A DNA stretch of 64,000 bases from assembly GCA_964652895.1 (NCBI GenBank), contig CAZZCH010000001.1, forward strand, positions 4,814 to 68,813. Reading direction: 5' to 3'. Shown here piece after piece: positions 35,962 to 49,344 of the stretch (position 1 is the first letter of the stretch; each line of letters opens with the position of its first letter). Origin of the DNA: an uncultured Eubacteriales bacterium (GTDB lineage: Bacteria; Acidobacteriota; Aminicenantia; Aminicenantales; Saccharicenantaceae). A program made the translations under genes and the position numbers. Below the pieces are notes generated by a model, which saw nothing but the letters and a program-made list of their open reading frames with translations, was not told where the DNA came from and ran no database searches.

Positions 35962-37665
35962 TCAATCGTTTTCGAGGGTGGACGTGTCGCCGATCTCCTC
36001 GCCCCACTCCTTGGCGTGGAGGATGCGGCGCATGATCTTGCCGCTCCGCGTCTTGGGGAGCGACGGGACGAACTCGATCTCCTGGGGCATGGCCAGGGGC
36101 GAGAGCTTCTTGCGGATGAAGTTCATGATCTCGAGGTCGAGGTCCTTGCTGGCCGTAAAGCCGGGCTTGAGGGTGACGAAGGCTTTGACCACCTCGAGGT
36201 TGATCGGGTCGGGCTTGCTGACGACGGCCGACTCGGCCACGGCCGGGTGCTCGAGGAGGGCCGATTCGACCTCGAACGGGCTGACGAGATGGCCGGCCGT
36301 GTTGATGATGTCGTCGTCGCGGCCGGCGAACCAGAAGTAGCCGTCCTTATCGATCTTGGAGCGGTCCCCGGTGATATACCAGCCGTTGCGAAACTTCTTC
36401 TGGAAGGCTTCTTCGTTGTTCCAGTACGTGCGCATGCGTGACGGCCAGTCGAACTTGAGGGCGACCAGGCCGATCTTGCCGTGCGTCGCGTAGGGCTCGT
36501 TCTTGACCGGGTCGAGGACGGTCCCGGTGATGCCCGGGAAGGGCTTGCCCATCGAGCCCGGCCGGACCTCCATGTCCGGGTAGTTGCTGATGACGATCGA
36601 GCCGGTCTCGGTCTGCCAGTAGGTATCATAGAACGGCATCCCGAAGACTTTCTGCGACCAGACGACGGCCTCGGAGTTGAGGGGCTCGCCGACGCTTGCC
36701 AGATGGCGGAGGGAGGACAGGTCGAATTTTCTAATGATCTCGTCGCCGGCCTTCATCAGGGAGCGGATGGCCGTCGGCGCCGAGTACCACATCGTCACCC
36801 GGCGCTTCTCGATCCACCTGTACCATGCTTCGGCGGAGAACCCGGCGTCGAGGACGCACTGGGTGACGCCGATGGCGAATGGCGCGATGATCCCGTATGA
36901 AGTGCCCGTGACCCAGCCCGGGTCGGCCGTGCACCAGTAGATGTCGTCTTCACGGAGGTCGAGGGCCCACTTGGCCGTCAAGTACTGAGAGATCAGGGAG
37001 TAATGGACGTGCTGGACGCCCTTGGGCATGCCCGTCGTACCCGATGTGTAGTGGAGGACGGAGGCCGACTCGGCCTTGGTCGGATGGATGTCGAGGTGCT
37101 CGACCGGAGCGGCCTTCTCGAGCGAGAAGGCGACCTCGCGGTCCTTGAGCGGGGTGACGCCGTCGTGGTCGACAAGGATGATGTGACGGATGTGGGGCAG
37201 TTTCTCGAGGATCTTGCGGACCTTGGGGGCGTGTTTCTTCTGGGTGATGACGGCGGAAGTTTCGGCGTTGGAGAGACGGACGAAGAGCGATTCGTCACCG
37301 AAGGCCGAGAACAGCGGCTGGGCGATGGCCCCGATCTTCAGGATGCCGAGGAAGCCGAGGTAGAGCTCGGGGATCTTGTCCATGAACAGGCAGACGCGCT
37401 CGCCGTCCTTCAGGCCGAGACCGCGGAGGAAAGCGCCGACGGTGTTCGAGGCCAGGCGGATGTCGTTGTAGGTATAGGTCTTTTCGGCGCCGGTGTGGCC
37501 TTCCCAGTGGAGGGCGACCTTCGAGCCTTTCCCCTGCTGGCAGATCCGGTCCGTGCAGTACCAGCCGATGTTGATGACGTCGCCCGGCCTGTAGCCGAGT
37601 TCATTTTCGGCGATCGTCCAGGAGAAATTCTTGACGCGTTCGTCGTACGATCCGATGTTCGACAT
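35962..37665 (-). CDS. AMP-forming acyl-activating enzyme of the acetyl-/propionyl-CoA synthetase subfamily
   Basis: YTSGTTGMPKG (A3), DTYWQTETG (ACS-family signature), GWYITGD, and the C-terminal SGKIMRR (A10 lysine). 567 aa. GGAGAGGAA SD. Confidence 0.8.
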   Translation of the reverse strand: MSNIGSYDERVKNFSWTIAENELGYRPGDVINIGWYCTDRICQQGKGSKVALHWEGHTGAEKTYTYNDIRLASNTVGAFLRGLGLKDGERVCLFMDKIPELYLGFLGILKIGAIAQPLFSAFGDESLFVRLSNAETSAVITQKKHAPKVRKILEKLPHIRHIILVDHDGVTPLKDREVAFSLEKAAPVEHLDIHPTKAESASVLHYTSGTTGMPKGVQHVHYSLISQYLTAKWALDLREDDIYWCTADPGWVTGTSYGIIAPFAIGVTQCVLDAGFSAEAWYRWIEKRRVTMWYSAPTAIRSLMKAGDEIIRKFDLSSLRHLASVGEPLNSEAVVWSQKVFGMPFYDTYWQTETGSIVISNYPDMEVRPGSMGKPFPGITGTVLDPVKNEPYATHGKIGLVALKFDWPSRMRTYWNNEEAFQKKFRNGWYITGDRSKIDKDGYFWFAGRDDDIINTAGHLVSPFEVESALLEHPAVAESAVVSKPDPINLEVVKAFVTLKPGFTASKDLDLEIMNFIRKKLSPLAMPQEIEFVPSLPKTRSGKIMRRILHAKEWGEEIGDTSTLEND

Positions 37666-37682
37666 GAGTGATTCCTCTCCGT

Positions 37683-38072
37683 TCAGGGTTGTGACGATTT
37701 CATTTCGAGGACGACGACGGCCGAGGCCAGGTCCTTGATATGGGTAAGCGAGACCTCCATGGACGAGATGCCGTGGGCCTCGCAGAACTCCTTGACCTTG
37801 CCGTGGATGAAAAGCTCGGGCTTGCCCAGGGCGTTGTTGACGACCTCGATCTCGGAGAACTTGTGGCCGCCGCTCCAGCCCGTGCCCATGGCCTTGAGGA
37901 AGGCCTCCTTGGCCGCGAACCGGGCGGCGAAATGCATGGCCGGGCGGTGTTTGGATTCGCAGTAGGCGATCTCGGTCGGAGTGAAGAGCTTTGTCTTGAG
38001 GCTCTCCGTGCGGACGAGCTTCTCCTCGACCCTTTGGACCTCGATGATGTCCGTTCCCGCCCCGAAAATCAA
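37683..38072 (-). CDS. acpS: holo-[acyl-carrier-protein] synthase (4'-phosphopantetheinyl transferase, AcpS type)
   Basis: 129 aa. The N-terminus (M)IFGAGTDIIEV and the core FAAKEAFLKAMG match AcpS. TTG start. Confidence 0.8.
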   Translation of the reverse strand: MIFGAGTDIIEVQRVEEKLVRTESLKTKLFTPTEIAYCESKHRPAMHFAARFAAKEAFLKAMGTGWSGGHKFSEIEVVNNALGKPELFIHGKVKEFCEAHGISSMEVSLTHIKDLASAVVVLEMKSSQP

Positions 38073-38194
38073 CGACTTGTGCGCCTTTCGTCCATGGAGT
38101 GCGGGCCCCGCGACACTTGGCCGGCCTCGAGGCGGCCGCGTTGACCGTCGGCCCGTAAAGACGGACCTTTATTATAGATAAGCGCCCTGAAATG

Positions 38195-38665
38195 TCAAAG
38201 AGGGATGCTGTTTCCTATCAGGATTCCAAGCAACATCTTATCTAGAAGATCAGCCGGACTGACCGTCTTAAAGGGAAAGCCACCCTTTTGGCCGATCTGA
38301 GAGATCAGATTTTTATCGCCCGTCACGAAATAATCGGCCTTCCCGTTGACGACCGAAACTAGGACAGGCAAATCCTTGTCCCCCACGGCGCCCCTAAAAG
38401 GGGCCAACTCCTCAGGGGCAGGTACGGAAATGACCTCGAGCTTCAGTTTGGGCAGAAATCGGCGGTAGGCCGGGAGTGCCTCGGGCATTTTCTTCCCGAT
38501 ATTCCGCTCGATCTCGATGAGATTGTAGCATCCCGTCAAGCCCGTCAGGGCCGGAAGATCCAGGCTCAGAATATCGAGGATCAGGCGCGGCGCTCCCCTC
38601 CATGATACCAGGCCGGATAGGATCACGTTCGAATCGAGGAAGATCCTAAGACTTCTTTTCGCCAT
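38195..38665 (-). CDS. PIN-domain toxin (VapC-like) of a type II toxin-antitoxin pair
   Basis: MAKRSLRIFLDSNVILS, a conserved Asp near the N-terminus, and a later D...D pattern. Its start overlaps the end of the upstream antitoxin gene by 20 nt. Confidence 0.65.
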   Translation of the reverse strand: MAKRSLRIFLDSNVILSGLVSWRGAPRLILDILSLDLPALTGLTGCYNLIEIERNIGKKMPEALPAYRRFLPKLKLEVISVPAPEELAPFRGAVGDKDLPVLVSVVNGKADYFVTGDKNLISQIGQKGGFPFKTVSPADLLDKMLLGILIGNSIPL

Positions 38666-38933
38666 AGGTCTCCTCGAAGAGGGCACGCCTCTCGTCCTCG
38701 AGGCCTTCGATCAGCTCCTCGAGCGTTGCACCCGAGGCCTTCATGATCCTGCCCAGCTCCCGGCGCGCTTCATCGAGTTCGAGTTTTCGCGGAGTGACCA
38801 GAATGGAGTCGCCAATGGGGATGATGGAAACGTTTTCTCCGTCATATAGGGTTCCCTTTTCCCGCACTTTCTTTGGGATGGTCAATTGCCCGCGTTCTCT
38901 TATCTGAGATTTATATGGTTTGGCATTGTCCAT
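38646..38933 (-). CDS. AbrB/MazE/SpoVT-family antitoxin
   Basis: 95 aa. QLTIPKKVREKG is a swapped-hairpin beta-barrel DNA-binding motif. The C-terminal half is acidic. Confidence 0.65.
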   Translation of the reverse strand: MDNAKPYKSQIRERGQLTIPKKVREKGTLYDGENVSIIPIGDSILVTPRKLELDEARRELGRIMKASGATLEELIEGLEDERRALFEETYGEKKS

Positions 38934-38962
38934 GGCGGCTCTCCCGTCGTAAATTCTGTATT

Positions 38963-38985
38963 CAGATTATCAGATATCTGATTAT
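38963..38985. promoter_or_regulatory. palindromic operator candidate (perfect 14-bp core ATCAGATATCTGAT) upstream of the antitoxin gene
   Basis: The palindrome is seen directly. It lies about 35 bp upstream of the ATG at 38933, where an autoregulated TA operator is expected. Confidence 0.4.
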
Positions 38986-39038
38986 TATGTCAAGGGGGAA
39001 TTCAATCAGTTTAGCGTATGGGCAGGACGTTCTCTCGT

Positions 39039-40565
39039 TCAGCGTCTGGCGCGCAACGTCGCCAGCGCTTCGGCGACCTCTTGGCCTTTGGCTTCGATCT
39101 CGTCCAGGATCTGCTCTGGGGTCCGTTCGTCCACGACGACCTTACGGTTGGGATTGACCGCCTTGAGGTCATAGCCCCGTTCCTCGATCTCGGCCCGGGT
39201 GACCGTCCAGCTCCGCTCGCTTTCGGCCCGCTCCGGCAGCAGTTTGAAGAATTCCTCAAAATGCGCCACCGTGAGAGGTGACTTTTTCCCTACCTTAATG
39301 TCCGAAAGGTCGAAATACCAAATCTGCTCCGTCGGTTTTCCCCTGGTGAAAAAGAGTAGATTAGTTTTGACGCCGGCCCCCGCGTTGACGAACGCCCCGC
39401 CGGAGAGGCTGATCAGGGCCCATAGGTCGCAGTCATCGAGCAATTTGCGCTTGGTTTGGACGAAGGCCGTTTCATTCGTCCGAAAAAGAACCCCCTCGTC
39501 GAGAACGATCCCGCATCGTCCGCCCGGCTTGAGCGAATCGATAACGTGTTGGAGGAAGAGGACCTGTGTCGCTCCCGTCTTGTAGGCGAAACGAGTTTGG
39601 GCCTCTTTGCCTTCCTTGCCCCCAAAAGGAGGGTTCGTCAGGACGACGTCGAAGAGAGCCGGCGCGTCCTGATAGAGCCCGCCGTAGATTTCATTCCCCG
39701 TGAGAGTGTTGCCGTGCCAGAGCCGCGGCTCGTCGATGCCATGCAAGATCAGGTTAGCCAGGGCGATCGGATAGATGAGATTTTCCTTCTCCCGGCCATA
39801 GAAGGTCCGTTGAGCGAGGGCATCGATCTTGTCGGGGGTCACGCCAGCTTTCGAATGCTCCCGCATGTAGAGGAACGACTGGACAAGGAAGCCGCCTGTT
39901 CCGCAACAGGGGTCATAAACCGTCTCTCCGGTTTTCGGGCCGATCGCCCTGACCATGGCCCGGATGACCTCACGGGGCGTGAAAAACTGCCCCCCGTCGT
40001 TGCCCTTCTCTCCCATCTTAAGGAGAAGTCCCTCATAGACCTGGGAAAGCGGAAAAACGTGAGTGGGGTCGATGGATTCGTTTGTGATTTCGTCGACTTT
40101 GTCCAAGACGTCGAGGAAGTTTCGCTCGGTATCGATGCGAACACGCTCGACGCCGGATAATATTTCGCTGATAACTTTCTGCCTGGAGGATGCGTTGGGC
40201 CGCTCTCGGAGCCCCCGCAAATGGGGTAAAAGCTCGCCGTTGACGAAGCCGAAAAAACCGCCTAAAGCCCCGTTCTGAAGTTCTACGCGCTTGGGCCCCT
40301 TAGGGTCGGCCCAATCCTTCCAGCGGAAAGGAGATTCAAGCGAGGGTATGTATTCCGCGCTAACGGCCTCCGACTCCTCCGCCTCCCGGGCCTCTTTTTC
40401 GTCCAGGATCCGAAGGAAAAGGAGCCAAGTCAGCTCCGGCACGTATTGCAGGGCGCCGGCGCAGTTCGAACGCCGCATGACATCGCATATGGACTTGACG
40501 GCAGAATTTACGGATCCCTGCGAATTCAGCCGCTTGCCGTTTCCATTTTTCCTCGCTCTGGCCAT
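39039..40565 (-). CDS. hsdM: type I restriction-modification system, N6-adenine DNA methyltransferase subunit
   Basis: N-terminal HsdM_N region, a DPCCGTGGFL SAM motif and an NPPFG catalytic motif. Confidence 0.9.
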   Translation of the reverse strand: MARARKNGNGKRLNSQGSVNSAVKSICDVMRRSNCAGALQYVPELTWLLFLRILDEKEAREAEESEAVSAEYIPSLESPFRWKDWADPKGPKRVELQNGALGGFFGFVNGELLPHLRGLRERPNASSRQKVISEILSGVERVRIDTERNFLDVLDKVDEITNESIDPTHVFPLSQVYEGLLLKMGEKGNDGGQFFTPREVIRAMVRAIGPKTGETVYDPCCGTGGFLVQSFLYMREHSKAGVTPDKIDALAQRTFYGREKENLIYPIALANLILHGIDEPRLWHGNTLTGNEIYGGLYQDAPALFDVVLTNPPFGGKEGKEAQTRFAYKTGATQVLFLQHVIDSLKPGGRCGIVLDEGVLFRTNETAFVQTKRKLLDDCDLWALISLSGGAFVNAGAGVKTNLLFFTRGKPTEQIWYFDLSDIKVGKKSPLTVAHFEEFFKLLPERAESERSWTVTRAEIEERGYDLKAVNPNRKVVVDERTPEQILDEIEAKGQEVAEALATLRARR

Positions 40566-40567
40566 AT

Positions 40568-41578
40568 CTACTTCCTTTTGCTGATGAGATTCATGACAAT
40601 GCGGATTATCGAATTCTTTTCCCGCGGCGAGCTCTCCGCAATGAGGAGCGTTATGGCCACAAGAGCGGTATCGGCAATTCGCTTCGTGCCGTCTTGATGA
40701 TAAAGCGAACCATTTTTCTCCATGAACCAGAGGAATAGCGCCGCCGCGATTCGTTTGTTGCCGTCCACGAAGCTGTGGTTTTTGACCAGGAAATAGAGGA
40801 GATGGGCCGCCTTCTCTTCGAGACCGGGATAAACGTCCTTCCCGTCGAACGTCTGCATGACGGCGTTAAGTGAACTATGGAGGCTGTCGTCCTTCTCGCG
40901 GCCGAAAATGTCCGAAGCGCCGAATTTCTCACGGAGCCGCTCGATAATGCTTTGAGCCTCGTCGTAGGAAATCGAATTCGCCCGGCCTTTTTGAACGGGC
41001 GCGGCAGGGATCTTCTGATGGTCGTAATCGTCGAGAAGGTCCAAGGCATAGGCGTAGTCCGTGACCACGCGCAACAGTGCTTTGGCCTCATCCGACGTAA
41101 CTTCGTAATGGTCCAGGACGTGCTCGACGAGCTGAAGCGACTGCCGAAGCTCCTTGAGGCGGTGCTCATTCGCCGTGTACCCCTTGACGATATGGTCCTT
41201 CAGAACGTTTGTGGCCCAGATACGGAACTGGGTCCCACGCTTGGAATTCACCCGGTAGCCGACGGAGATTATCATGTCAAGGCTGAAAAGGTCGATCTGG
41301 CGGATCTTGCCATCAGCAGCAACCTGTGCATTTTTTGCACAGGTTGATTTCTCGGCTAACTCATTGGTAGAGTAGATGTTGTGGATGTGTTTAAGGATAA
41401 CGGTACGATCACGCCCGAATAGGGCAGCCATCTGATGCGCGTCAAGCCAGACAGTATCCCGCTCAAGGCGTACCTCTAAGGCCGCAGGGCCGCCGGCTGT
41501 CCGATAGAGGACTATTTCCCCCTTTCTTTCACCAGGAATCCACCTATCTGCTTTTTCTTGGATTTTATTCTTTGCCAT
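40568..41578 (-). CDS. RhuM-family protein fused to a Fic/DOC domain
   Basis: The N-terminal 200 aa are RhuM-like (virulence protein family). The C-terminus carries the Fic motif HSFVDGNKRIAAALF, i.e. HxFx(D/E)GNKR. It is embedded between hsdS and hsdM. Confidence 0.8.
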   Translation of the reverse strand: MAKNKIQEKADRWIPGERKGEIVLYRTAGGPAALEVRLERDTVWLDAHQMAALFGRDRTVILKHIHNIYSTNELAEKSTCAKNAQVAADGKIRQIDLFSLDMIISVGYRVNSKRGTQFRIWATNVLKDHIVKGYTANEHRLKELRQSLQLVEHVLDHYEVTSDEAKALLRVVTDYAYALDLLDDYDHQKIPAAPVQKGRANSISYDEAQSIIERLREKFGASDIFGREKDDSLHSSLNAVMQTFDGKDVYPGLEEKAAHLLYFLVKNHSFVDGNKRIAAALFLWFMEKNGSLYHQDGTKRIADTALVAITLLIAESSPREKNSIIRIVMNLISKRK

Positions 41579-41580
41579 GG

Positions 41581-42795
41581 TCAGGGCTCTCCATTAAACG
41601 CCCTTCTTAATAACGCCGCAGGCAGGGAATTTATCTCATGGAGTTGTTTCTCGATATCGTTCCGGAGCCGTTCCGTGGATGCCATTTGCTCATTCAGAAC
41701 GGCCGCGATATGTTTTTGCTCGGCCATTTCACATACTGGGACTTGGAGGTTCTCTATATGCGGCCGCGTTATTTTTTTCATCGATCCACTGGCTCCACCA
41801 GCCTTCGATCTCCAATATCCGCTTATGAATAAAAAAGAAAGATAGTTTGTGAGAAATTCCGGATGTACATCATGGGCTGTTCTTATCCTGATCGTGAGAT
41901 CCGAGGCGACGATCTGATTGGCAGCACCTTTATAAAGAGAAACCCGGCCAACAAGCTCGGCCGTGTTGCTTCGAGCGATAAGAATTTCGCCCGGGTTCAA
42001 AATACACATTGGTACGTCTTTTGCCCTCATGTGGCCAGTTTTTATGCCATCATAAGAAAATCCGCCTTCCGTGAGACACGCGGTGGTAACTGCTTGGACT
42101 TCGACGTCCCCTTCAGTAGCAATGGATTTCGATGGCAAGAGTGTTGCAGTATTTCCTAATCTAGCCCACCGCCAGTCGGGAGGCAATTCCTGTCCTTCCT
42201 TAGGAAAGACCTGACCCAGATAAGCTGCCGGGAGCGCCTTTGCCGCCTCAAGCTGAGCCTCAGCGGCGGCTCGCGCTTTTTCCACAGCCCCCGTCTGCTC
42301 ATCGAGAATGGCAGCAATGCGCTTTTGCTCGGATAGGGGCGGGAGGGGTACGGCGAAGTCTTCAAGCTCCTTGCGATTGATTGCCCCGAAGGTGCTTCCA
42401 CTTCCCTTTCTCTCTAGGTTACTTTCTTCTTTTTTTATCCAGAACAAAAGGAAGTCCATTTCAATGCTATTCCCACACCGAACAGCAGCAAGCCCTCTCC
42501 CGATACAGCATTCTTGGTTGGCAACATTAGTTGGCCCAACGGGTGCTCTTACTGATATGAGTATGTCCTTTGCTTTTGCTAACTTTGTTGGCTCGACACA
42601 CCAGGCTCGAGGAATCGGATGCCGCTGGCCGAAATCAGCTTTTCCTTGAAAAAACGGGAGGCCCTCTGGGGCTTTTCGATAAGTATGACCAGGGGGAGAC
42701 TGACCTGCAATAATTTCACACACCTCCCCTAGTTCCACCCACCGCCAGCCGGGGGGTAAAGTTGGCTGCTCTTTCAATCTTCTATTGACATTCAT
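41581..42795 (-). CDS. hsdS: type I restriction-modification system specificity subunit (two target-recognition domains)
   Basis: Two TRD halves separated by the conserved LPPLSEQKRIAAILDE and (END) LPAALLRRAF coiled-coil spacers. Confidence 0.85.
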   Translation of the reverse strand: MNVNRRLKEQPTLPPGWRWVELGEVCEIIAGQSPPGHTYRKAPEGLPFFQGKADFGQRHPIPRAWCVEPTKLAKAKDILISVRAPVGPTNVANQECCIGRGLAAVRCGNSIEMDFLLFWIKKEESNLERKGSGSTFGAINRKELEDFAVPLPPLSEQKRIAAILDEQTGAVEKARAAAEAQLEAAKALPAAYLGQVFPKEGQELPPDWRWARLGNTATLLPSKSIATEGDVEVQAVTTACLTEGGFSYDGIKTGHMRAKDVPMCILNPGEILIARSNTAELVGRVSLYKGAANQIVASDLTIRIRTAHDVHPEFLTNYLSFLFISGYWRSKAGGASGSMKKITRPHIENLQVPVCEMAEQKHIAAVLNEQMASTERLRNDIEKQLHEINSLPAALLRRAFNGEP

Positions 42796-42906
42796 AGGTT
42801 TGTCTTAGATATTATAGCCAATCCGGTTATCCGGAGGTGGATGGCGAAGGCCATCGGGCCCATTTGGGCCTTTTTATTTCCGGGCTCCCGCTGTGTTTTC
42901 TTGGGC

Positions 42907-43533
42907 TCATGCCTTGGAAAGTCCTCGGAGACGCCGGTTCACGGCCTCAAGATTGAAGAACGAGGGGTTGAATCTTCCGCCCATCCACTCTTTGATCTCT
43001 TCGTGTTCAGGATGATTGGTGTCCTTGATGATTTCCAGTTTCCCGTAGTATCCGTAAAGGCCGCCGCTGTCCTCGGGCGGACAGGCATTCTCTCCTTCAA
43101 GGCACCGGGGATACGATGCCCCTTCATTTGGGAGATCGGCTTTCTCTACCGTGATTTCGTGGATCCAATCGTCTCCGAAATCATAGATATAGCGGAACGA
43201 TTTCCCGGTCGCGGGAATAACGTCCTTCGCCCTGACCCGGCTTTCATCGCGCATCTCGGGCGCGAACAGATTGTCCGACGATGCCGAAGGCCCATAATTG
43301 GTCCCGCCGATGACGAATTCATGAAGATGGTCATCCTCCCAGCCCATCGCCCACTGTAAAACTTTGTGCAAGACCGCCAGCCTGAGGCTGCCGGGGACTT
43401 GGATCCGGCGCCAGATCGGAGGTTTGGAGCCCGCCAAGACGACTTTTAGTTGGTATATGCCATCCTTCGTTACGGCTGAAGCCTGCCGCGCGCTCTTCGA
43501 GTGTCCGGAAGGAAGCCTCGTCTTGGTTTTCAT
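42907..43533 (-). CDS. pRiA4b ORF-3-like family protein (PF07929), unknown function
   Basis: YQLKVVLAGSKPPIWRRIQVPGSLRLAVLHKVLQWAMGWEDDHLHEF is the family signature. ATGA overlap with hsdR. Confidence 0.6.
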   Translation of the reverse strand: MKTKTRLPSGHSKSARQASAVTKDGIYQLKVVLAGSKPPIWRRIQVPGSLRLAVLHKVLQWAMGWEDDHLHEFVIGGTNYGPSASSDNLFAPEMRDESRVRAKDVIPATGKSFRYIYDFGDDWIHEITVEKADLPNEGASYPRCLEGENACPPEDSGGLYGYYGKLEIIKDTNHPEHEEIKEWMGGRFNPSFFNLEAVNRRLRGLSKA

Positions 43534-45896
43534 GTCTCGAACATCCTTTCCTTGGTCTCCATGAGGATTTCGGAGGGCTTGCCCATCGCTTTCAGGGCGG
43601 CCAGGCCGCCGGCGCCGACGACCTCGGGCGTCTGGAATACGGCCGGATTCTCCAGCCCTTCGGTGCCGGCCCGGGCGAATTGTCCAGCGACGGCGCGGAT
43701 GACGGCTGCCGTCTCCGTCGGCATCCCTTTCAGCCAGGCCTCGTGCTTGTAGGTGAAGGAATCAGCCCGCTCTCCTCGGGTTTTGGGTGCCATACCGTAG
43801 CCGAGCTCGGCTAGGACATCATAAAGGTCATAATCGAGCATGCCCTCGAGACTGCGGACCATGGGAGCGGACCGTCCGGCGTCGGGCAGATGGGAAATCA
43901 GATCCCGGCGCCTGGGCGGGACGACCCAGACCGAACGGAACTTCTCGAGCGTCGGCGCTTCCTTAACCAACCGGGCGGCCAGCCGTTCCTTGTATTCTTC
44001 GACGGTCACTGGCATGGCCTTTCCGTCTTCGTCAGTCACAATATAGCGCCCGGCAGCAGTGACCCGGACCTGGAAGCCTTCGACCAGAAGCACGCGCTCA
44101 GCTTCTCCCTCCGCTGAAGGCTTGTACTTGCGCTCGCGAGGCGGCCTATATTTCTCGCGGAACTCCTCACCGAAGAGCCGCGTCGCGTCGGTATAATCGA
44201 AGACACGGAACATGAGCTTGCCGTCCGGGGCATAGAGCCGGGTCCCGCGCCCGACCATCTGATAAAATGCGATCGGCGAGCGGACATATTTGAAAAAGAC
44301 GATATTACGAACGCATGGAACATCGACACCCGTGCTCAGCAAATCCACAGTCGTGGCGATAAAATAGCGGCGCGAAGCTCCGCGCAGGTCAGCCAGGTAC
44401 TCGTTGCCGCCTGAGGCCGCGGTGCATTTGAAAGCATACGGCTCGGCCCGTTGACGTTTCTTGCCGGCACACCAATCGGCGTAGAGATTGTTCAACGTCG
44501 CCGCGACGTCATCGGCATGCCTATCCCTGCGGCAGAAGATGATCGTCTTCTGCTCGGGCTCGCCGACGGCCAGGAGTTGTTCGAAAAGGCTCTCGCACAT
44601 CGCCGCGACGCGCTCGGGCATCAGGAGATGGTCCTCCAGACTGGGTGCGTCATAGTAGTCGCGGGCTTCGTCTTTAGTGAGCCCTTCTCCTGTAGAAGCA
44701 TCCTTAAGTTTCTTCCCGGCCAGGTCGTCTCGCGAAACGCCGCTCTCCCGCTCATTCACTTTCTTGTTGTCATGAAAGAGGTCGAACCGGCGTATTTCGC
44801 AAGCGGCAAGATAGCCGTCCTCGATGCCCTGGGCCATGTCATATTCATAGACCGGCTTGCCGAACCAGCGGATGTTGTCGGCCGTGATCTGAGCATCGTT
44901 ACGGAACTCCTTGGTCTCTTCCCTGATGTCGAGGCGTCGAGGTGTCGCGGTCAACCCGACTTGGATGGCCAGGGGATTACGGGTGAGAACCTGGGACCAC
45001 TTGCCCCAGGCGGAACGGTGGCACTCGTCGATGACGATGTGGCTGAAGTAGTTCTCGGGATAGTGGGTCAGGAGGAAGTTCGCGTCGGCGTCGTCCGTGT
45101 CCACGTCGAGCGTTTGATAGGTAGCGACGAGAATTCGAGCGTTTTTCTGGGGATTATCACCCGTGACCGCGGCGGCGTCGGCCCCAAACACGTTCTGGAA
45201 GGCTGAAAGTCCCTGGGACCGGAGTTCGTCCCGGTCGCAGACGAACAGGGCGCGACGGAGCTGGCCGGCATCGGCGATCCGTTTGAGAAGATTTACGGCG
45301 ATGAACGTCTTGCCCGAGCCCGTTGCCAGAGCAAGCAGGGCACGTTTTTCGCCGCGAGCAGTCTTTTCAAGGACAGCGCGGATCGCGGCGTCCTGGTAAT
45401 AGCGCCGCGTGGCTTCCCCACCGGCATAGCGGACGAGGAGCGGGCGCGCGGCCGGAAGATCCAGAGTAAAACCCATGTGCTTTTCATAACGGGCGCGCAG
45501 GTCGGCCGGGGCGGGGAAATCGGTCAAGGGCGCTGGCGCAGATGTCTGGCCGGTGAACCTATCGAATTCGACAAAAAGGTGTCCGTTGCTCGAGTAGACG
45601 AATGGGACGTTAAGCCGCTTACAGGCGGCATAGAGCTTAGCCTGTTCGAGCCCGTGAGTTGGGGGCAGATGCTCGGCCTTGGCTTCGATGAGGGCGACGG
45701 CGACCGGCTGGCTATCCAGAGTGGCCTTGACCCTGAGGACGTAGTCGATACGGCCTCGGGACCGGCGGCGCGGGCCGCTGTCCCCGATTTCTATGGCGCC
45801 AGCGGTTTCTTCCCGCCGAATGAGGTCTTCCGTCCAGCCGCGCCTGTGAATGGCGGGGTCGATTAGCTTCGCCCGAGTATCGGATTCGGTCAGCAT
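43530..45896 (-). CDS. hsdR: type I restriction enzyme R subunit
   Basis: N-terminal restriction-endonuclease-like domain, Walker A LATGSGKTF, a DEAH-box VIDECHRS, and helicase motifs up to QMVGRGTR. Confidence 0.9.
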   Translation of the reverse strand: MLTESDTRAKLIDPAIHRRGWTEDLIRREETAGAIEIGDSGPRRRSRGRIDYVLRVKATLDSQPVAVALIEAKAEHLPPTHGLEQAKLYAACKRLNVPFVYSSNGHLFVEFDRFTGQTSAPAPLTDFPAPADLRARYEKHMGFTLDLPAARPLLVRYAGGEATRRYYQDAAIRAVLEKTARGEKRALLALATGSGKTFIAVNLLKRIADAGQLRRALFVCDRDELRSQGLSAFQNVFGADAAAVTGDNPQKNARILVATYQTLDVDTDDADANFLLTHYPENYFSHIVIDECHRSAWGKWSQVLTRNPLAIQVGLTATPRRLDIREETKEFRNDAQITADNIRWFGKPVYEYDMAQGIEDGYLAACEIRRFDLFHDNKKVNERESGVSRDDLAGKKLKDASTGEGLTKDEARDYYDAPSLEDHLLMPERVAAMCESLFEQLLAVGEPEQKTIIFCRRDRHADDVAATLNNLYADWCAGKKRQRAEPYAFKCTAASGGNEYLADLRGASRRYFIATTVDLLSTGVDVPCVRNIVFFKYVRSPIAFYQMVGRGTRLYAPDGKLMFRVFDYTDATRLFGEEFREKYRPPRERKYKPSAEGEAERVLLVEGFQVRVTAAGRYIVTDEDGKAMPVTVEEYKERLAARLVKEAPTLEKFRSVWVVPPRRRDLISHLPDAGRSAPMVRSLEGMLDYDLYDVLAELGYGMAPKTRGERADSFTYKHEAWLKGMPTETAAVIRAVAGQFARAGTEGLENPAVFQTPEVVGAGGLAALKAMGKPSEILMETKERMFET

Positions 45897-46180
45897 GGTC
45901 CCTTGGCGTCTCTTGCCTCAGGTGTTTGATAACATAGGGCAGACGGATGGTCAAGGCCGCGGTCGCCGCCGTCGGACATGAACGGCTGTTTCTCGCCGTC
46001 GCGCAATTGGACGGCCATCACCTGCTGGGGCGTGGCCAGGACGTGGTTATCCTCGGTGCCGAACTTCTGAGTGAAGAGGTTGGCGATGCCGCTCCCCCGG
46101 TCGGAGACGAAGTACATCAGGCCCCCGGCCCCTTGCATCCCCGGCCCATCTATCGGAGAATAACCCGGACAGGTGGACGG

Positions 46181-47380
46181 ATGACCAAGCGGCAGGCCTT
46201 GTATCTCATATCCCTGGCGGAATTGTTGGCGATGTCGGTCTGGTTCTCGGCGTCGGCGGTCGTGCCCGCCCTCGCCGCGGCCTGGAAGCTGACGGGGGCC
46301 GGCCAGGCCTGGCTGACCATGTCTGTACAACTCGGGTTCGTTATCGGCGCGTTCGGCTCGGCCGTCCTCAACCTGGCCGACCGAATTCCCTCCCGCAGGC
46401 TTTTTCCCATGTCGGCCCTGCTCGCAGGCGCCGCGACCTTTCTCATCCCGGCCATGGGTTCAAACCTGACGGCCGTTCTGCTCCTCCGCTTCCTCACCGG
46501 GCTCTTTCTGGCCGGCGTTTATCCGGTCGGAATGAAGATCATGGCCACCTGGACCAAAGATGACCGCGGCTGGGGCATCGGTCTCCTGGTCGGGGCCTTG
46601 ACCCTCGGCTCCTCCGCCCCGCATCTCATTAAGGTCCTGGGCGGGGTTTCGGACTGGGGATTCGTGCTCCGCGCGAGCGGCCTCCTCGCGGCCGGCGGCG
46701 GCCTCGTCGCCTTCCTCTTCGTCCATGAAGGACCTTCCCGGGCCGCATCCCCGCGGTTCGATTGGAGGTACTCGGGCGAGATCTGGCGCGACAAGGCGAT
46801 CCTTTTCGCCAACCTGGGCTACTTCGGCCACATGTGGGAGCTCTACGCTGCCTGGACCTGGGTCCCGGTTTTCCTAGTCGCGAGCTTCCGCGGCTCGGGG
46901 ATCGCCGAGAGATGGGCCGGCCTGGCCGGCTTCGCTTTTATCGCGGCCGGCGCGGCCGGGTGCCTCGCCGCGGGGAGGCTGGCCGACCGTCTCGGCAGGA
47001 CCGCGGTGACGTCGGGGGCGATGGCCCTGAGCGGACTGAGCTGTCTTCTCGCGGGCCTTTTCTTCGGCCGGAATCCCTGGCTTCTCTCTGCCCTCTGTCT
47101 CGTCTGGGGTTTCGCCGTGGTCGCCGATTCGGCCCAATTTTCGGCCGGTGTCAGTGAACTTTGCCCGGCCGATAGAACGGGAACGGTCCTGACGCTTCAG
47201 ACCAGCCTGGGTTTCTTGCTGACGCTCGCAACCATCTGCCTCGTCCCGGCACTCGAGCGTCTCGTAACATGGCGCTGGGCGTTTGTCCCGCTGGCCATCG
47301 GACCCGTGCTTGGGATCTGGGCCATGCTCCGTCTCCGCCGCCTCCCCGCCTCGGCCCGGATGGCCTCCGGCCGCCGCTAG
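46181..47380 (+). CDS. MFS transporter
   Basis: 12 TM helices, with an MFS-type D/R-rich loop between TM2 and TM3. The ATG at 46181 follows an AGGTGGA SD. The track ORF is N-terminally extended. Confidence 0.7.
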   Translation: MTKRQALYLISLAELLAMSVWFSASAVVPALAAAWKLTGAGQAWLTMSVQLGFVIGAFGSAVLNLADRIPSRRLFPMSALLAGAATFLIPAMGSNLTAVLLLRFLTGLFLAGVYPVGMKIMATWTKDDRGWGIGLLVGALTLGSSAPHLIKVLGGVSDWGFVLRASGLLAAGGGLVAFLFVHEGPSRAASPRFDWRYSGEIWRDKAILFANLGYFGHMWELYAAWTWVPVFLVASFRGSGIAERWAGLAGFAFIAAGAAGCLAAGRLADRLGRTAVTSGAMALSGLSCLLAGLFFGRNPWLLSALCLVWGFAVVADSAQFSAGVSELCPADRTGTVLTLQTSLGFLLTLATICLVPALERLVTWRWAFVPLAIGPVLGIWAMLRLRRLPASARMASGRR

Positions 47381-47391
47381 TTGCTAATTCG

Positions 47392-47469
47392 GGGACACAA
47401 TACCAATTTCCGAATTTCGTCGCTGTTTGATGGAAGCCCGAAGAATTTCGGAAATTGGTATTGTGTCCC
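47392..47469. repeat. 78-bp element formed by two perfect 23-bp inverted repeats (GGGACACAATACCAATTTCCGAA) separated by 32 bp
   Basis: Seen directly. It sits exactly between the stop codons of two convergent genes (47380 and 47471). Confidence 0.6.
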
Positions 47470-47470
47470 T

Positions 47471-48241
47471 CTATTTCCGGTGAACTAGCGTCGCCGAGGC
47501 CTGGGCCGTGGGCATGACCACGACCTCGCTGACGTTGACGTGGAGCGGCCGCGTCGCGCACCAGACGACCGCATCGGCGATGTCGTCCGGCCCGAGCGGC
47601 GTCAGGCCCTGGTAGACCTTGCCCGCCCGCTCCGCGTCGCCGTGGAAGCGGACGAGGCTGAATTCCGTTTCGACCATGCCCGGGTCCACCTCGCTCACCC
47701 GTATGGGCGTTCCGCTCAGGTCGAGCCGGAGCCCTTTCGACAGGGCCCGGACGGCGAACTTCGTCGCGCAGTAGACGTTCCCGCCGGGATAGACCTCGTG
47801 CCCGGCGATGGAACCGATGTTGATGATGTGGCCCCTTCCCCGCTCGATCATCCCCGGGATGACGGCCCGGCTGACAAATAGAAGCCCTTTGACGTTCGTG
47901 TCGATCATCTCCTCCCAGTCGTCGATCTGGCCCTGGGGGAGCTTGTCCAGACCCCGGCTGAGCCCGGCGTTGTTGACCAGGATCTCGATCGCACGCCATT
48001 CCGGGGGAAGGCCGGCCACGGCTTTTTCGACGGCCGGTTGGTCCCGGACGTCAAGCCGAAAATAGTGGGCGGCGACGCCGTACTCGAACTCGAGGGTTTG
48101 GGCCAGCTTTTCCAGTTTTTCGGCGCGCCGTGCGCACATCAATATTCTCGCGCCCTGGGCGGCGAAGGACTGGGCCGTGCTCTCTCCTATTCCCGAGCTG
48201 GCGCCGGTGACGAAAACGATCTTGCCTTTCAAGGACAACAT
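47471..48241 (-). CDS. SDR-family NADP-dependent oxidoreductase (YdfG-like 3-hydroxy acid / serine dehydrogenase)
   Basis: TGASSGIG cofactor motif, NNAG, and the YCATK catalytic tetrad. Confidence 0.8.
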   Translation of the reverse strand: MLSLKGKIVFVTGASSGIGESTAQSFAAQGARILMCARRAEKLEKLAQTLEFEYGVAAHYFRLDVRDQPAVEKAVAGLPPEWRAIEILVNNAGLSRGLDKLPQGQIDDWEEMIDTNVKGLLFVSRAVIPGMIERGRGHIINIGSIAGHEVYPGGNVYCATKFAVRALSKGLRLDLSGTPIRVSEVDPGMVETEFSLVRFHGDAERAGKVYQGLTPLGPDDIADAVVWCATRPLHVNVSEVVVMPTAQASATLVHRK

Positions 48242-48390
48242 GTTCTTTCTCCTATGGGCCGGGCTACTCCGTTCAAGCGTCCGGGAGAATAAGCATATGA
48301 ACGGGCCGCCCCGAAGTCAACCCCTGGACTCCGCGGCATGAATGCCGGAGATTTTTGCCGGATTCCTAGGCTTGTGGTATACATCCGGAC

Positions 48391-49344
48391 ATGCCTGAGG
48401 CCCCTTCGCGAGCGACCAAAAGGACAACTTTGAAAAAGTGGCTGGTCGCCGTCCGGCCTTGGGCCCTTCCGGCCTCAACTATGCCCGTCGTCTTCGGGAC
48501 GGCCCTGGCCGTCGTCATCGGCGGGGCCAGGTTCTCACCCCTCCTCTTCCTCTGGGCCCTGGCCACGATGATGGTCCTCCACTCCGCCGCCAACATGCTC
48601 AGCGACGTCTTCGATTTCCGTCGCGGCCTGGACCGCGACGTGACGCCGGTGAGCGGAGCCATCGTTCGGGGCTGGCTCACCGACCGGCAGGTCTTCCGCG
48701 GCTCCCTCGTCCTCTTCGCTTTCGGAGCGGGCTCGGGCCTCCTCATCGCCCGCGCGACCGGGAAGTCCCTACTCATCGTCGGAGGCATCGGCGTGGCGGT
48801 GGGCGCCCTCTACTCGCTCCTCAAGGCCCGCGCCCTCGGGGACCTGGCCGTCTTCTTGAACTTCGGCCTGCTTGGAGCGGCCGGCGCCTGGGTCGTCCAG
48901 ACGAATTCCTTCTCCTGGCTGCCCGTCCTCTGGACCGTGCCCATGGCCTTGCTCGTGATCGCCATCCTCCATGCCAACAACTGGCGGGACATCCTCACGG
49001 ACGGCGAAAAGCGCGTGACCACCGTCGCCGGAGTCCTCGGCGACAAGGGATCGACTGCCTACTACGGATGTCTCGTCTTCGGCCCGTTCGTCATCGACCT
49101 CGCTTTCATCTCCGTCCCCCGCCTGACCGGGGGGTTGCTGCGCCCCATGCCCCTGACGTTCCTCGTCGTTTTCATGGCCCTCCCGAGCGCCCTCCGGCTC
49201 TGGGGACGGGCCGTGCGCCGGGCCGCACCGCGTTCGCCGCTCGACTTCATCGTTCTCGACGGGGCGACAGCCAAGCACAACCTTGTCTTCGGCCTGCTCA
49301 GCACGGCCGCCGCCATCCTCGAAGGGATCGTCAGATGGGGATAA
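48391..49344 (+). CDS. UbiA-family aromatic prenyltransferase (MenA-like)
   Basis: Polytopic membrane protein with NMLSDVFDFRRGLD (the first Asp-rich motif) and a second Asp-rich region, NNWRDILTD. Confidence 0.75.
   Translation: MPEAPSRATKRTTLKKWLVAVRPWALPASTMPVVFGTALAVVIGGARFSPLLFLWALATMMVLHSAANMLSDVFDFRRGLDRDVTPVSGAIVRGWLTDRQVFRGSLVLFAFGAGSGLLIARATGKSLLIVGGIGVAVGALYSLLKARALGDLAVFLNFGLLGAAGAWVVQTNSFSWLPVLWTVPMALLVIAILHANNWRDILTDGEKRVTTVAGVLGDKGSTAYYGCLVFGPFVIDLAFISVPRLTGGLLRPMPLTFLVVFMALPSALRLWGRAVRRAAPRSPLDFIVLDGATAKHNLVFGLLSTAAAILEGIVRWG

Follow-up and report, generated by a model that had tools for sequence, protein, structure and literature searches.

The seven minus-strand genes at positions 38195-45896 of a 64-kb window from an Aminicenantes bacterium (assembly GCA_964652895.1, contig CAZZCH010000001.1; the window is the whole stretch of DNA that was analysed) are read here as a composite defence islet of separable modules, lodged in a plasticity hotspot between acpS and a major facilitator superfamily (MFS) gene. 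The probability of this reading is put at about 60%. The islet consists of a type I restriction-modification (R-M) system, a PRiA4_ORF3 gene that overlaps hsdR, a RhuM-Doc (RhuM-Fic) fusion gene embedded in the R-M operon, and a probable AbrB/MazE-PIN toxin-antitoxin (TA) pair. New in this locus are the clade-specific coupling of hsdR to PRiA4_ORF3 and a natural presence/absence series at a single site, the rest being mostly already catalogued.

On the minus strand the genes run hsdR, PRiA4_ORF3, hsdS, the RhuM-Fic fusion, hsdM, the AbrB/MazE-like gene and the PIN-like gene. This order and its domain calls had been proposed in a first-pass annotation made from the letters alone, and both were recovered by the listing of open reading frames (ORFs) and by profile searches with Pfam, PADLOC and NCBIfam. 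The island has a GC content of 0.563 against 0.635 in the remainder of the window, and it is the lowest-GC 7.7-kb stretch within the 64 kb. A trough at 41400-42900 spans hsdS, which has the lowest GC of the window (0.505; GC at third codon positions, GC3, 0.47), and the beginning of the RhuM-Fic gene (GC 0.531, GC3 about 0.65-0.66), so the AT-richness that the first-pass annotation had noted for these two genes stood up to profiling. GC3 is 0.72 for hsdR and hsdM and about 0.65 for PRiA4_ORF3 and the TA pair; across the island genes it thus ranges from 0.47 to 0.72, compared with 0.82-0.92 for the flanking genes. Purifying selection acts on every island gene, with omega values of 0.05-0.26. 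An Rfam search gave no match within 36000-49000.

To collect relatives of the locus, metagenomes were scanned for the AMP-binding protein of the flank; this yielded 80 loci, which were mapped by tblastn and blastn, and further ones came from a separate genome scan (loci L089-L092 and others); genes within the relatives' cargo were called using codon-position GC. The protein clusters of the flanking genes belong to Candidatus Aminicenantes/Aminicenantales metagenome-assembled genomes (MAGs), and the identical island is present in three independent assemblies. Among relatives with an 85-97% identical flank protein, the acpS-MFS interval is highly variable. It is empty (about 120-380 bp) in L025, L026, L029 and L030, which bears out the suggested insertion between the acpS cassette and an MFS gene. 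Only the TA pair is found in L015, L027, L020 and L013, an amidase in L014, and a SLFN-group-3 helicase in L020. Intact RhuM-Fic genes with no R-M genes occur in L011, L012 and L018, where the neighbours are GNAT, DUF302, TonB_C, MBL or Tricorn-protease genes. In L004/L005/L017 the site holds TA-hsdR-PRiA4-hsdS-hsdM, lacking RhuM-Fic and with the TA pair on the opposite side, and in L006/L007 only PRiA4_ORF3 and a 115-aa RhuM fragment are left. The complete order hsdR-PRiA4-hsdS-RhuMFic-hsdM-AbrB-PIN-acpS was found in two further species (L091 and L092) by the genome scan, which also gave closer but partial copies of the cassette (L089 and L090). At least five other Aminicenantes lineages (L004, L089-L092) thus have a homologous cassette at this site. 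This is a well-documented, lineage-specific hotspot in an uncultured phylum, a single site that in different relatives holds nothing, a TA pair, a lone RhuM-Doc gene, a SLFN-type helicase or a full R-M cassette.

Several of these loci show further detail. The content of L006 (8001-8999) and L007, an intact PRiA4_ORF3 of 206 aa beside the RhuM fragment, resembles what a decaying R-M cassette would leave behind. Degraded copies were also seen in L090 and L091, in which hsdR, hsdS or hsdM is fragmented, and in L175, in which hsdS is split in two. In L020 (782-3355; flank 92% identical) the helicase is an 857-aa Schlafen-group-3 protein (DUF2075-type, E 5e-86) that adjoins the AbrB-PIN pair.

The island alleles are more diverged than their surroundings. 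Between the window and L004, synonymous divergence (dS) is 0.34-0.51 for the flanks and 0.99 for hsdR, 1.52 for hsdM, 0.82 for PRiA4_ORF3 and 1.1-2.2 for the TA genes; compared with L092 it is 0.24-0.42 for the flanks and 1.25-1.8 for island genes, and compared with L011 it is 0.23-0.30 for the flanks and 1.48 for RhuM-Fic. Overall, island values of 0.8-2.2 stand against about 0.23-0.55 for flanks of the same genome pairs, a 2-5-fold excess to which the strong codon bias of the flanks (GC3 about 0.9) may contribute by partly lowering flank dS. The island alleles therefore coalesce deeper than the surrounding chromosome. Together with the empty sites and the switching of the TA pair between sides, this points to repeated replacement at the hotspot and not to simple vertical descent. 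A horizontal origin, as first proposed, is supported by the non-native GC and the raised dS, with deviant composition combined with presence and absence at a fixed site in close relatives; marks of mobility were not seen, there being no tRNA in the window, no recombinase or transposase among its ORFs and no flanking direct repeats. The arrival was not recent, however. The first-pass annotation had held that conserved synteny across the lineage with native GC would speak against recent acquisition, and of these the first was found and the second was not. Because the cassette shares its site in several species, it is a long-standing occupant of the hotspot and not a recent one-off arrival.

The RhuM-Doc gene (40568-41578, minus strand, 336 aa) lies between hsdS upstream and hsdM downstream, with a gap of 2 nt on each side. 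Pfam RhuM (E 4e-24) covers residues 78-188, corresponding to model positions 1-111 of 252, and Fic (E 2e-13) covers residues 203-286; since the RhuM match is partial, the Doc domain replaces the C-terminal half of RhuM. The PADLOC phage-defence candidate family PDC-S23 (PDLC04965) matches residues 19-334 with E 7e-133, making the protein a full-length member. More than 8000 full-length homologues with the same architecture are spread across many phyla under the NCBI name 'virulence protein RhuM/Fic/DOC family protein'. The fused gene is thus a typical PDC-S23 member and not the local peculiarity for which it had been taken, the fusion having been noted in 2013. In that survey RhuM is described as often fused to DOC, both as sitting in R-M operons, and a toxin role in multilevel R-M-linked defence is proposed (Anantharaman 2013, PMC3710099). 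RhuM-family genes have further been reported as 14-fold enriched near invertible hsdS loci (PMC9881135), and with these two sources the earlier statement that RhuM and Fic/DOC recur in type I R-M operons holds. No experimental study of either accessory gene, RhuM-Doc or PRiA4_ORF3, was found in the literature.

The Fic motif, whose degeneration would have made an enzymatic role unlikely according to the first-pass annotation, is intact and of the Doc type. It reads HSFVDGNKR (H268 to R276; codons at 40751-40777, minus strand), and 56 homologues of 64-84% identity share H268, F270, D272, G273, N274, K275 and R276 without exception. The motif aligns with HCFYNANKR of the Doc-family structure 9vzc and with HIFNDANKR of P1 Doc, a Doc-family PDB chain was matched with E 1e-5, and the PHROG 'Doc-like toxin' with E 2e-16. 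In the predicted model the Doc domain has a pLDDT of about 87, and its top Foldseek matches are the P1 Doc chain 3k33_A (TM 0.78, rmsd 3.0), 3dd7_A and 3kh2_A (TM 0.74-0.78 on target, prob 1.00). The protein thus carries the motif HxFx(D/N)(A/G)NKR of the Doc subfamily and a predicted Doc-like fold. In P1 Doc, a lysine replaces the second glycine of the AMPylating GNGR; it marks the Doc subfamily, which phosphorylates EF-Tu rather than AMPylating. By analogy, RhuM-Doc is likely a kinase rather than an AMPylase. Assignment as an AMPylating GNGR-type Fic was rejected, as the intact motif is HxFxDGNKR. Neither a Phd/YefM-type antitoxin gene nor any other small antitoxin ORF adjoins RhuM-Doc, which sets it apart from Phd-Doc pairs, and the inhibitory helix motif (S/T)xxxE(G/N) was not seen by eye in the sequence.

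Intact RhuM-Doc copies occur both with and without R-M genes. In L004, window positions 40577-41587 are precisely replaced by 49 bp while the R-M cassette is otherwise the same, and stand-alone copies are intact at the same hotspot in L011, L012 and L018. Other close homologues adjoin MazE-PIN pairs, or an SLFN helicase (of the SLFN-g3 type in L177) together with a NERD gene. A distant homologue is a Tn3 passenger in Legionella plasmids, others lie in arrays of small same-strand genes in Shewanella, Vibrio and Pseudomonas plasmids, and type I genes were nearby at one of the four RhuM-Doc loci sampled. Because intact copies are found in both situations, including at this hotspot, the pattern argues for RhuM-Doc as a putative self-contained toxin module, autonomous of R-M. 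It would be co-transcribed with hsdS and hsdM. The N-terminal RhuM region, probably winged-helix-like, would sense or restrain the C-terminal Doc-type effector, which by the P1 Doc analogy would phosphorylate EF-Tu and halt translation, giving an abortive-infection or dormancy backstop once restriction fails. We infer the kinase activity and its target, the trigger and the regulatory role of the RhuM part.

The embedded position leads to the question whether the toxin is instead a guard of the R-M complex. In such a PrrC-like arrangement, RhuM-Doc would be held latent on the type I complex until a phage anti-restriction protein released it, so that restriction and toxin would form one coupled system. 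The 2-nt gaps that separate the gene from hsdS and from hsdM speak for it, since with them RhuM-Doc should be co-transcribed and probably co-translated with its neighbours, as do the retention of the same arrangement in L091, L092 and L175, the precedent of EcoprrI-PrrC with RhuM/DOC in an analogous position of R-M operons (PMC3710099), and the 14-fold enrichment near invertible hsdS loci (PMC9881135). However, homologues of 65-78% identity, both at this hotspot and in other places, are intact and conserved although no R-M genes accompany them, so that RhuM-Doc must be tolerable where an R-M partner is lacking. Moreover, neither an ABC-ATPase nor a HEPN domain was found in any of the seven proteins by Pfam, PADLOC or NCBIfam, which places the locus outside EcoprrI-PrrC/RloC. 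The guard arrangement is accordingly considered unlikely, though it is the alternative that best survives the comparison.

A selfish role was weighed as well, in which RhuM-Doc and AbrB-PIN would mainly stabilise the islet or its carrier elements by post-segregational killing and the position in a defence operon would be hitch-hiking. Homologues carried on Tn3, plasmids and phage or satellite records would suit this, as would the label 'prophage maintenance system killer protein' that JGI gives to many of them and the persistence of the TA pair alone at the site in several relatives. The same-locus alleles of RhuM-Doc, at 65-74%, are also more diverged than some homologues labelled as other phyla (78-81%), which suggests frequent horizontal replacement. 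Against this, RhuM-Doc is a single polypeptide without the separate labile antitoxin needed for classic post-segregational killing; L004 has lost the gene cleanly and L006 retains no more than a fragment of it, with no evident replacement; and stand-alone copies neighbour defence-type genes (SLFN helicase, NERD). Addiction as the main function is therefore rated improbable. In the allele comparison, the sister Aminicenantes at the same site are L011, L018 and L092 and the closer homologues are labelled Bathyarchaeota, Atribacteria and Planctomycetes, a hint of exchange across phyla or of errors in MAG binning.

The PRiA4_ORF3 (MM3350-like) gene (42907-43533, minus strand, 208 aa) is a firm member of PF07929 (E 2e-66; 223 bits vs a cut-off of 26.6), and a 4-nt overlap (ATGA) links its start to the stop of hsdR, as the first-pass annotation had read. 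It matches PDB entry 2i1s in sequence (E 1e-38) and, with an AlphaFold model of pLDDT 86.5, in fold (Foldseek 2i1s_A, TM 0.88, E 6e-19). PADLOC, which matched the type I R-M genes and PDC-S23 when that suggested check was run, had no match for PRiA4_ORF3. The overlap with hsdR is retained in L004, L089-L092 and L175, while PRiA4_ORF3 identity drops to 55% and HsdR stays above 82%; omega for PRiA4_ORF3 is 0.17-0.25. The R-M-linked copies form an exclusive Aminicenantes clade (8 of the 82 tips of the family tree) whose members have a basic extension of about 25 aa at the N terminus. In genomes of the Genome Taxonomy Database (GTDB), hsdR lies directly upstream of PRiA4 only at four Aminicenantes/Acidobacteria loci, and a type I-like gene is present within 9 kb at about four of 76 PRiA4 loci outside Aminicenantes.

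That the family as a whole is a companion of defence loci, as had been assumed, is thus not supported in general; PRiA4_ORF3 is mostly a transposon passenger. Transposons of the ISAzba1 group carry PRiA4_ORF3 in this manner (PMC3942029). In Polaromonas sp. CG9_12, a 3316-bp IS66-family element is present in at least five identical (100%) copies (L123 6325-9640, also L124, L125, L127 and L131; L154 at 92%) and encodes an HTH_Tnp_1 protein, an IS66 transposase and, as its last ORF, a PRiA4_ORF3 homologue. In a deltaproteobacterial MAG (L101 7907-14737), one of the approximately four loci with a type I-like gene nearby, PRiA4_ORF3 lies directly upstream of a distant type I hsdR-hsdM-hsdS set (29-38% identity); because L101 falls outside the Aminicenantes clade, this is a second, independent adjacency of PRiA4 and type I genes. 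No functional literature on PRiA4_ORF3, PF07929 or MM3350 was found.

The coupling of hsdR to PRiA4_ORF3 is the sole feature of the locus that was not found described. PRiA4_ORF3 would most likely be synthesised in parallel with HsdR by translational coupling and act with HsdR or on the same DNA; the gene arrangement suggests such a functional tie, and any physical contact between the two proteins would be an extrapolation from it. Taken further, type I R-M systems of this Aminicenantes lineage might have the protein as a true fourth component, a small beta-barrel in fixed ratio with HsdR that would bind HsdR, DNA or both. It would tune restriction, for instance by alleviating it, by handing over targets or by controlling HsdR; in fold it is similar to the scaffold and DNA-contacting beta-barrel of eukaryotic SNAP50. 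We regard this proposal as tentative and, as it stands, doubtful. If true, it could explain why the unrelated ISAzba1 and IS66 elements carry the gene, as modulating host restriction or DNA processing in the transposons' favour, and an orphan family with several thousand members would gain its first functional handle. The conserved coupling to hsdR in any case provides a concrete, testable setting for a family that has otherwise been known solely as cargo of transposons.

The opposite explanation treats the gene as a leftover, a transposon passenger that landed by chance after hsdR and plays no part in R-M. It draws on the carriage of the family by ISAzba1-group transposons (PMC3942029) and by the multicopy Polaromonas element, on the location of most members away from R-M genes, and on the persistence of the gene in L006/L007 after hsdR, hsdS and hsdM had gone. 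On the other hand, no transposase or inverted repeats lie beside the gene here, the ATGA overlap is kept across lineages with saturated dS, the omega values show constraint at 0.17-0.25, and the R-M-linked copies make up one clade with its own basic N-terminal extension. A chance leftover is thus regarded as very unlikely.

Two observations on the protein itself may be added. After 2i1s, Foldseek listed the SNAP50/SNAPC3 chains 9fso_Z and 7xur_B of human SNAPc (E 8e-5 and 2e-4, prob 1.00, TMq 0.44-0.46). SNAP50 was described as without known homologous structure in the SNAPc structure paper (PMC9652321). From the modelled fold, PRiA4_ORF3 is a possible prokaryotic relative of the SNAP50 beta-barrel domain. 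Residues H56, H69, H125 and C144 are invariant and H71 and C151 are conserved in at least 90% of the sequences, and these His/Cys residues might form a metal site.

That the stretch is no island at all, but ancestral, vertically inherited chromosome whose low GC reflects gene function only, can hardly be upheld: the homologous cassette at the same acpS-MFS site in several Aminicenantes species and the 82-95% identity of HsdR and HsdM, near flank values, fit it, whereas the empty sites and many alternative cargos in equally close relatives already contradict it, as do the TA pair on opposite sides of the R-M genes between lineages, the 2-5-fold dS and a GC3 far under that of the flanks.

After hsdM comes the TA pair, an AbrB/MazE(SpoVT)-type antitoxin candidate (38646-38933, minus strand, 95 aa) and a PIN-domain toxin candidate (38195-38665, minus strand, 156 aa from ATG), overlapping by 20 nt. 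In the translation of the latter, the PIN-like acidic residues D11, E50/E52, D95/D97 and D116 stand at expected positions, and the AbrB/MazE-like gene has an omega of 0.06-0.11. A consensus scan found a sigma-70-like promoter with 11/12 matches at 38966-38993 on the minus strand (TTGACA-16-GATAAT), and a perfect palindrome, ATCAGATATCTGAT at 38969-38982, overlaps its spacer and -10 hexamer. Eight diverged copies of the pair have kept the motif TCAGAnnTCTGATAwTCTGA in their upstream region but not the sequence around it, and this supports the palindrome as an operator. The antitoxin in L004 has a precomputed annotation as MazE, a weak one. The pair proposed in the first-pass annotation, with its palindromic operator, was thus recovered with family scores below threshold, and its call rests on weak homology, gene arrangement, the conserved acidic residues and conservation in relatives together. 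AbrB-PIN is probably a VapBC-like pair, with the layout of an overlapping bicistron, acidic residues and a palindrome in the promoter, though it falls outside the family by curated thresholds. Because some relatives carry it alone and others have it on the opposite side of the R-M genes, it is an independent module, which would repress its own promoter at the conserved inverted repeat.

Several results, the codon bias of the flanks among them, count against the composite defence islet as described. All profile scores of the TA pair lie below their cut-offs: PIN_3 20.7-20.9 bits vs 27 (E 7e-4), TIGR00305 for the PIN gene 26.7 vs 29.15 (E 5e-6), the TIGR01439 AbrB domain 25.7 vs 28.3 (E 7e-6) and MazE_antitoxin 16 vs 24.7 (E 0.012). 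For RhuM-Doc, TIGR01550 DOC_P1 scored 38.1 bits, just under its cut-off of 38.65, and the N-terminal and middle parts of the model have a pLDDT of 29-60, which bears on the intramolecular restraint of Doc. The relatives are MAG or metagenome contigs, which cannot reveal an unlinked antitoxin or partner elsewhere in the genome. The JGI labels and the plasmid contexts agree with addiction no less than with defence. Finally, no paper naming PDC-S23 and no experimental work on it were found in the literature.

The R-M genes carry the motifs expected of a type I system, with HsdR, HsdM and HsdS encoded together. HsdR (43530-45896, minus strand, 788 aa; ResIII, SWI2_SNF2, Helicase_C, EcoEI_R_C) has GSGKT at residue 193, DECH at 290 and a D..ExK nuclease candidate at 51-73. 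The NCBIfam model restrict_EcoAI (NF046051) aligned over positions 1-751 of 768 with E 9e-132 and 440.9 bits; because this is under the equivalog cut-off of 550, HsdR is EcoAI-like and not a certified equivalog. HsdM (39039-40565, minus strand, 508 aa; N6_Mtase E 8e-59, HsdM_N; PADLOC MTase_I E 2e-186) has NPPF at residue 311, and HsdS (41581-42795, minus strand, 404 aa; PADLOC Specificity_I E 6e-65) has two target-recognition domains (TRDs), seen as two Methylase_S stretches in Pfam. The hsdS gene contains an internal 42-nt repeat at 609-bp spacing, and its product is just 56% identical in amino acids to that of L004; omega for hsdR is 0.05-0.09. An assignment to MADS was rejected, since the matches of hsdM and hsdS to mad2 and mad5 were far weaker than those to the type I models. 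The 111-bp gap between PRiA4_ORF3 and hsdS (42796-42906, minus strand) holds a GC hairpin at 42856-42871 and a TATAAT hexamer at 42811-42816, and is a possible internal start of an hsdS-rhuM/doc-hsdM transcript; no candidate in this gap passed the consensus promoter scan on the minus strand. The EcoAI-like system would methylate self DNA and cut unmodified incoming DNA.

The boundaries of the island are marked on both sides. At the right boundary (38171-38198, minus strand), a sigma-70 promoter with 12/12 consensus matches, TTGACA-16-TATAAT, reads into acpS, and the TGA stop codon of the PIN gene falls within its -35 hexamer; flank homology with L004, L006, L011, L015, L018 and L022, whose cargo differs, stops at about 38200. 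At the left boundary (45961-46131), two relics of a Tricorn/S41 protease gene (45961-46055 and 46050-46131) are 85-93% identical to L011 and L089 in blastn pieces. Relatives (L011 4273-7527, L089 and L175) have an intact copy of this gene between MFS and the variable region, and the L011 product contains Tricorn_C1, PDZ_Tricorn and Peptidase_S41. Homology of the MFS gene to relatives begins at about 46181-46214. The first approximately 78 codons of the 477-aa MFS ORF (45947-46180) cross the protease relics, and since the gene is called with 399 aa in relatives, the ORF is probably over-extended and its true start near 46181. Between the convergent MFS and SDR genes, at 47391-47470, lies a near-perfect hairpin with 31-nt arms of 94% complementarity and an RNA fold energy of -49 kcal/mol (z = -9.9 vs shuffles). 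It has no Rfam match and a related sequence in L025, and could act as a bidirectional terminator or represent a repeat element.

Compared with EcoAI and other type IB systems, the R-M genes agree in the N-terminal nuclease candidate, DEAD/DECH translocase and EcoEI_R_C of HsdR, the NPPF of HsdM and the two TRDs of HsdS. They differ in the order hsdR-X-hsdS-Y-hsdM, with two extra genes in the operon, and in an HsdR score under the cut-off. With PF07929 and 2i1s the PRiA4 protein shares strong membership, whereas here its gene has no adjacent transposase, is coupled to hsdR and belongs to its own Aminicenantes R-M clade. The TA pair resembles VapBC with an AbrB/MazE-fold antitoxin and a PIN toxin in the small upstream antitoxin gene, the overlap, the acidic residues and the inverted repeat at the promoter, but all its family scores stay below curated cut-offs.

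RhuM-Doc has the same architecture and R-M embedding as the PDC-S23 or RhuM-DOC fusions described before (PMC3710099), with no material difference; what is added is that the motif is strictly of the Doc type and that members with and without R-M share a hotspot. A very common candidate family thus looks self-contained and Doc-type, which sharpens the experiment needed for its validation. P1 Doc of the Phd-Doc pair has the same HxFx(D/N)(A/G)NKR motif and is the best fold match; in contrast, no Phd-type gene is present here, the Doc domain stands behind about 200 residues of RhuM-type sequence, and its target and chemistry are predictions. As in EcoprrI-PrrC and RloC, a type I hsd operon contains the gene for a translation-directed toxin, here a candidate one, which suggests two layers of defence. 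Unlike those systems, the locus encodes no ABC-ATPase/HEPN anticodon nuclease and homologues of RhuM-Doc live without R-M, so that a dependence of this toxin on the R-M complex is unlikely.

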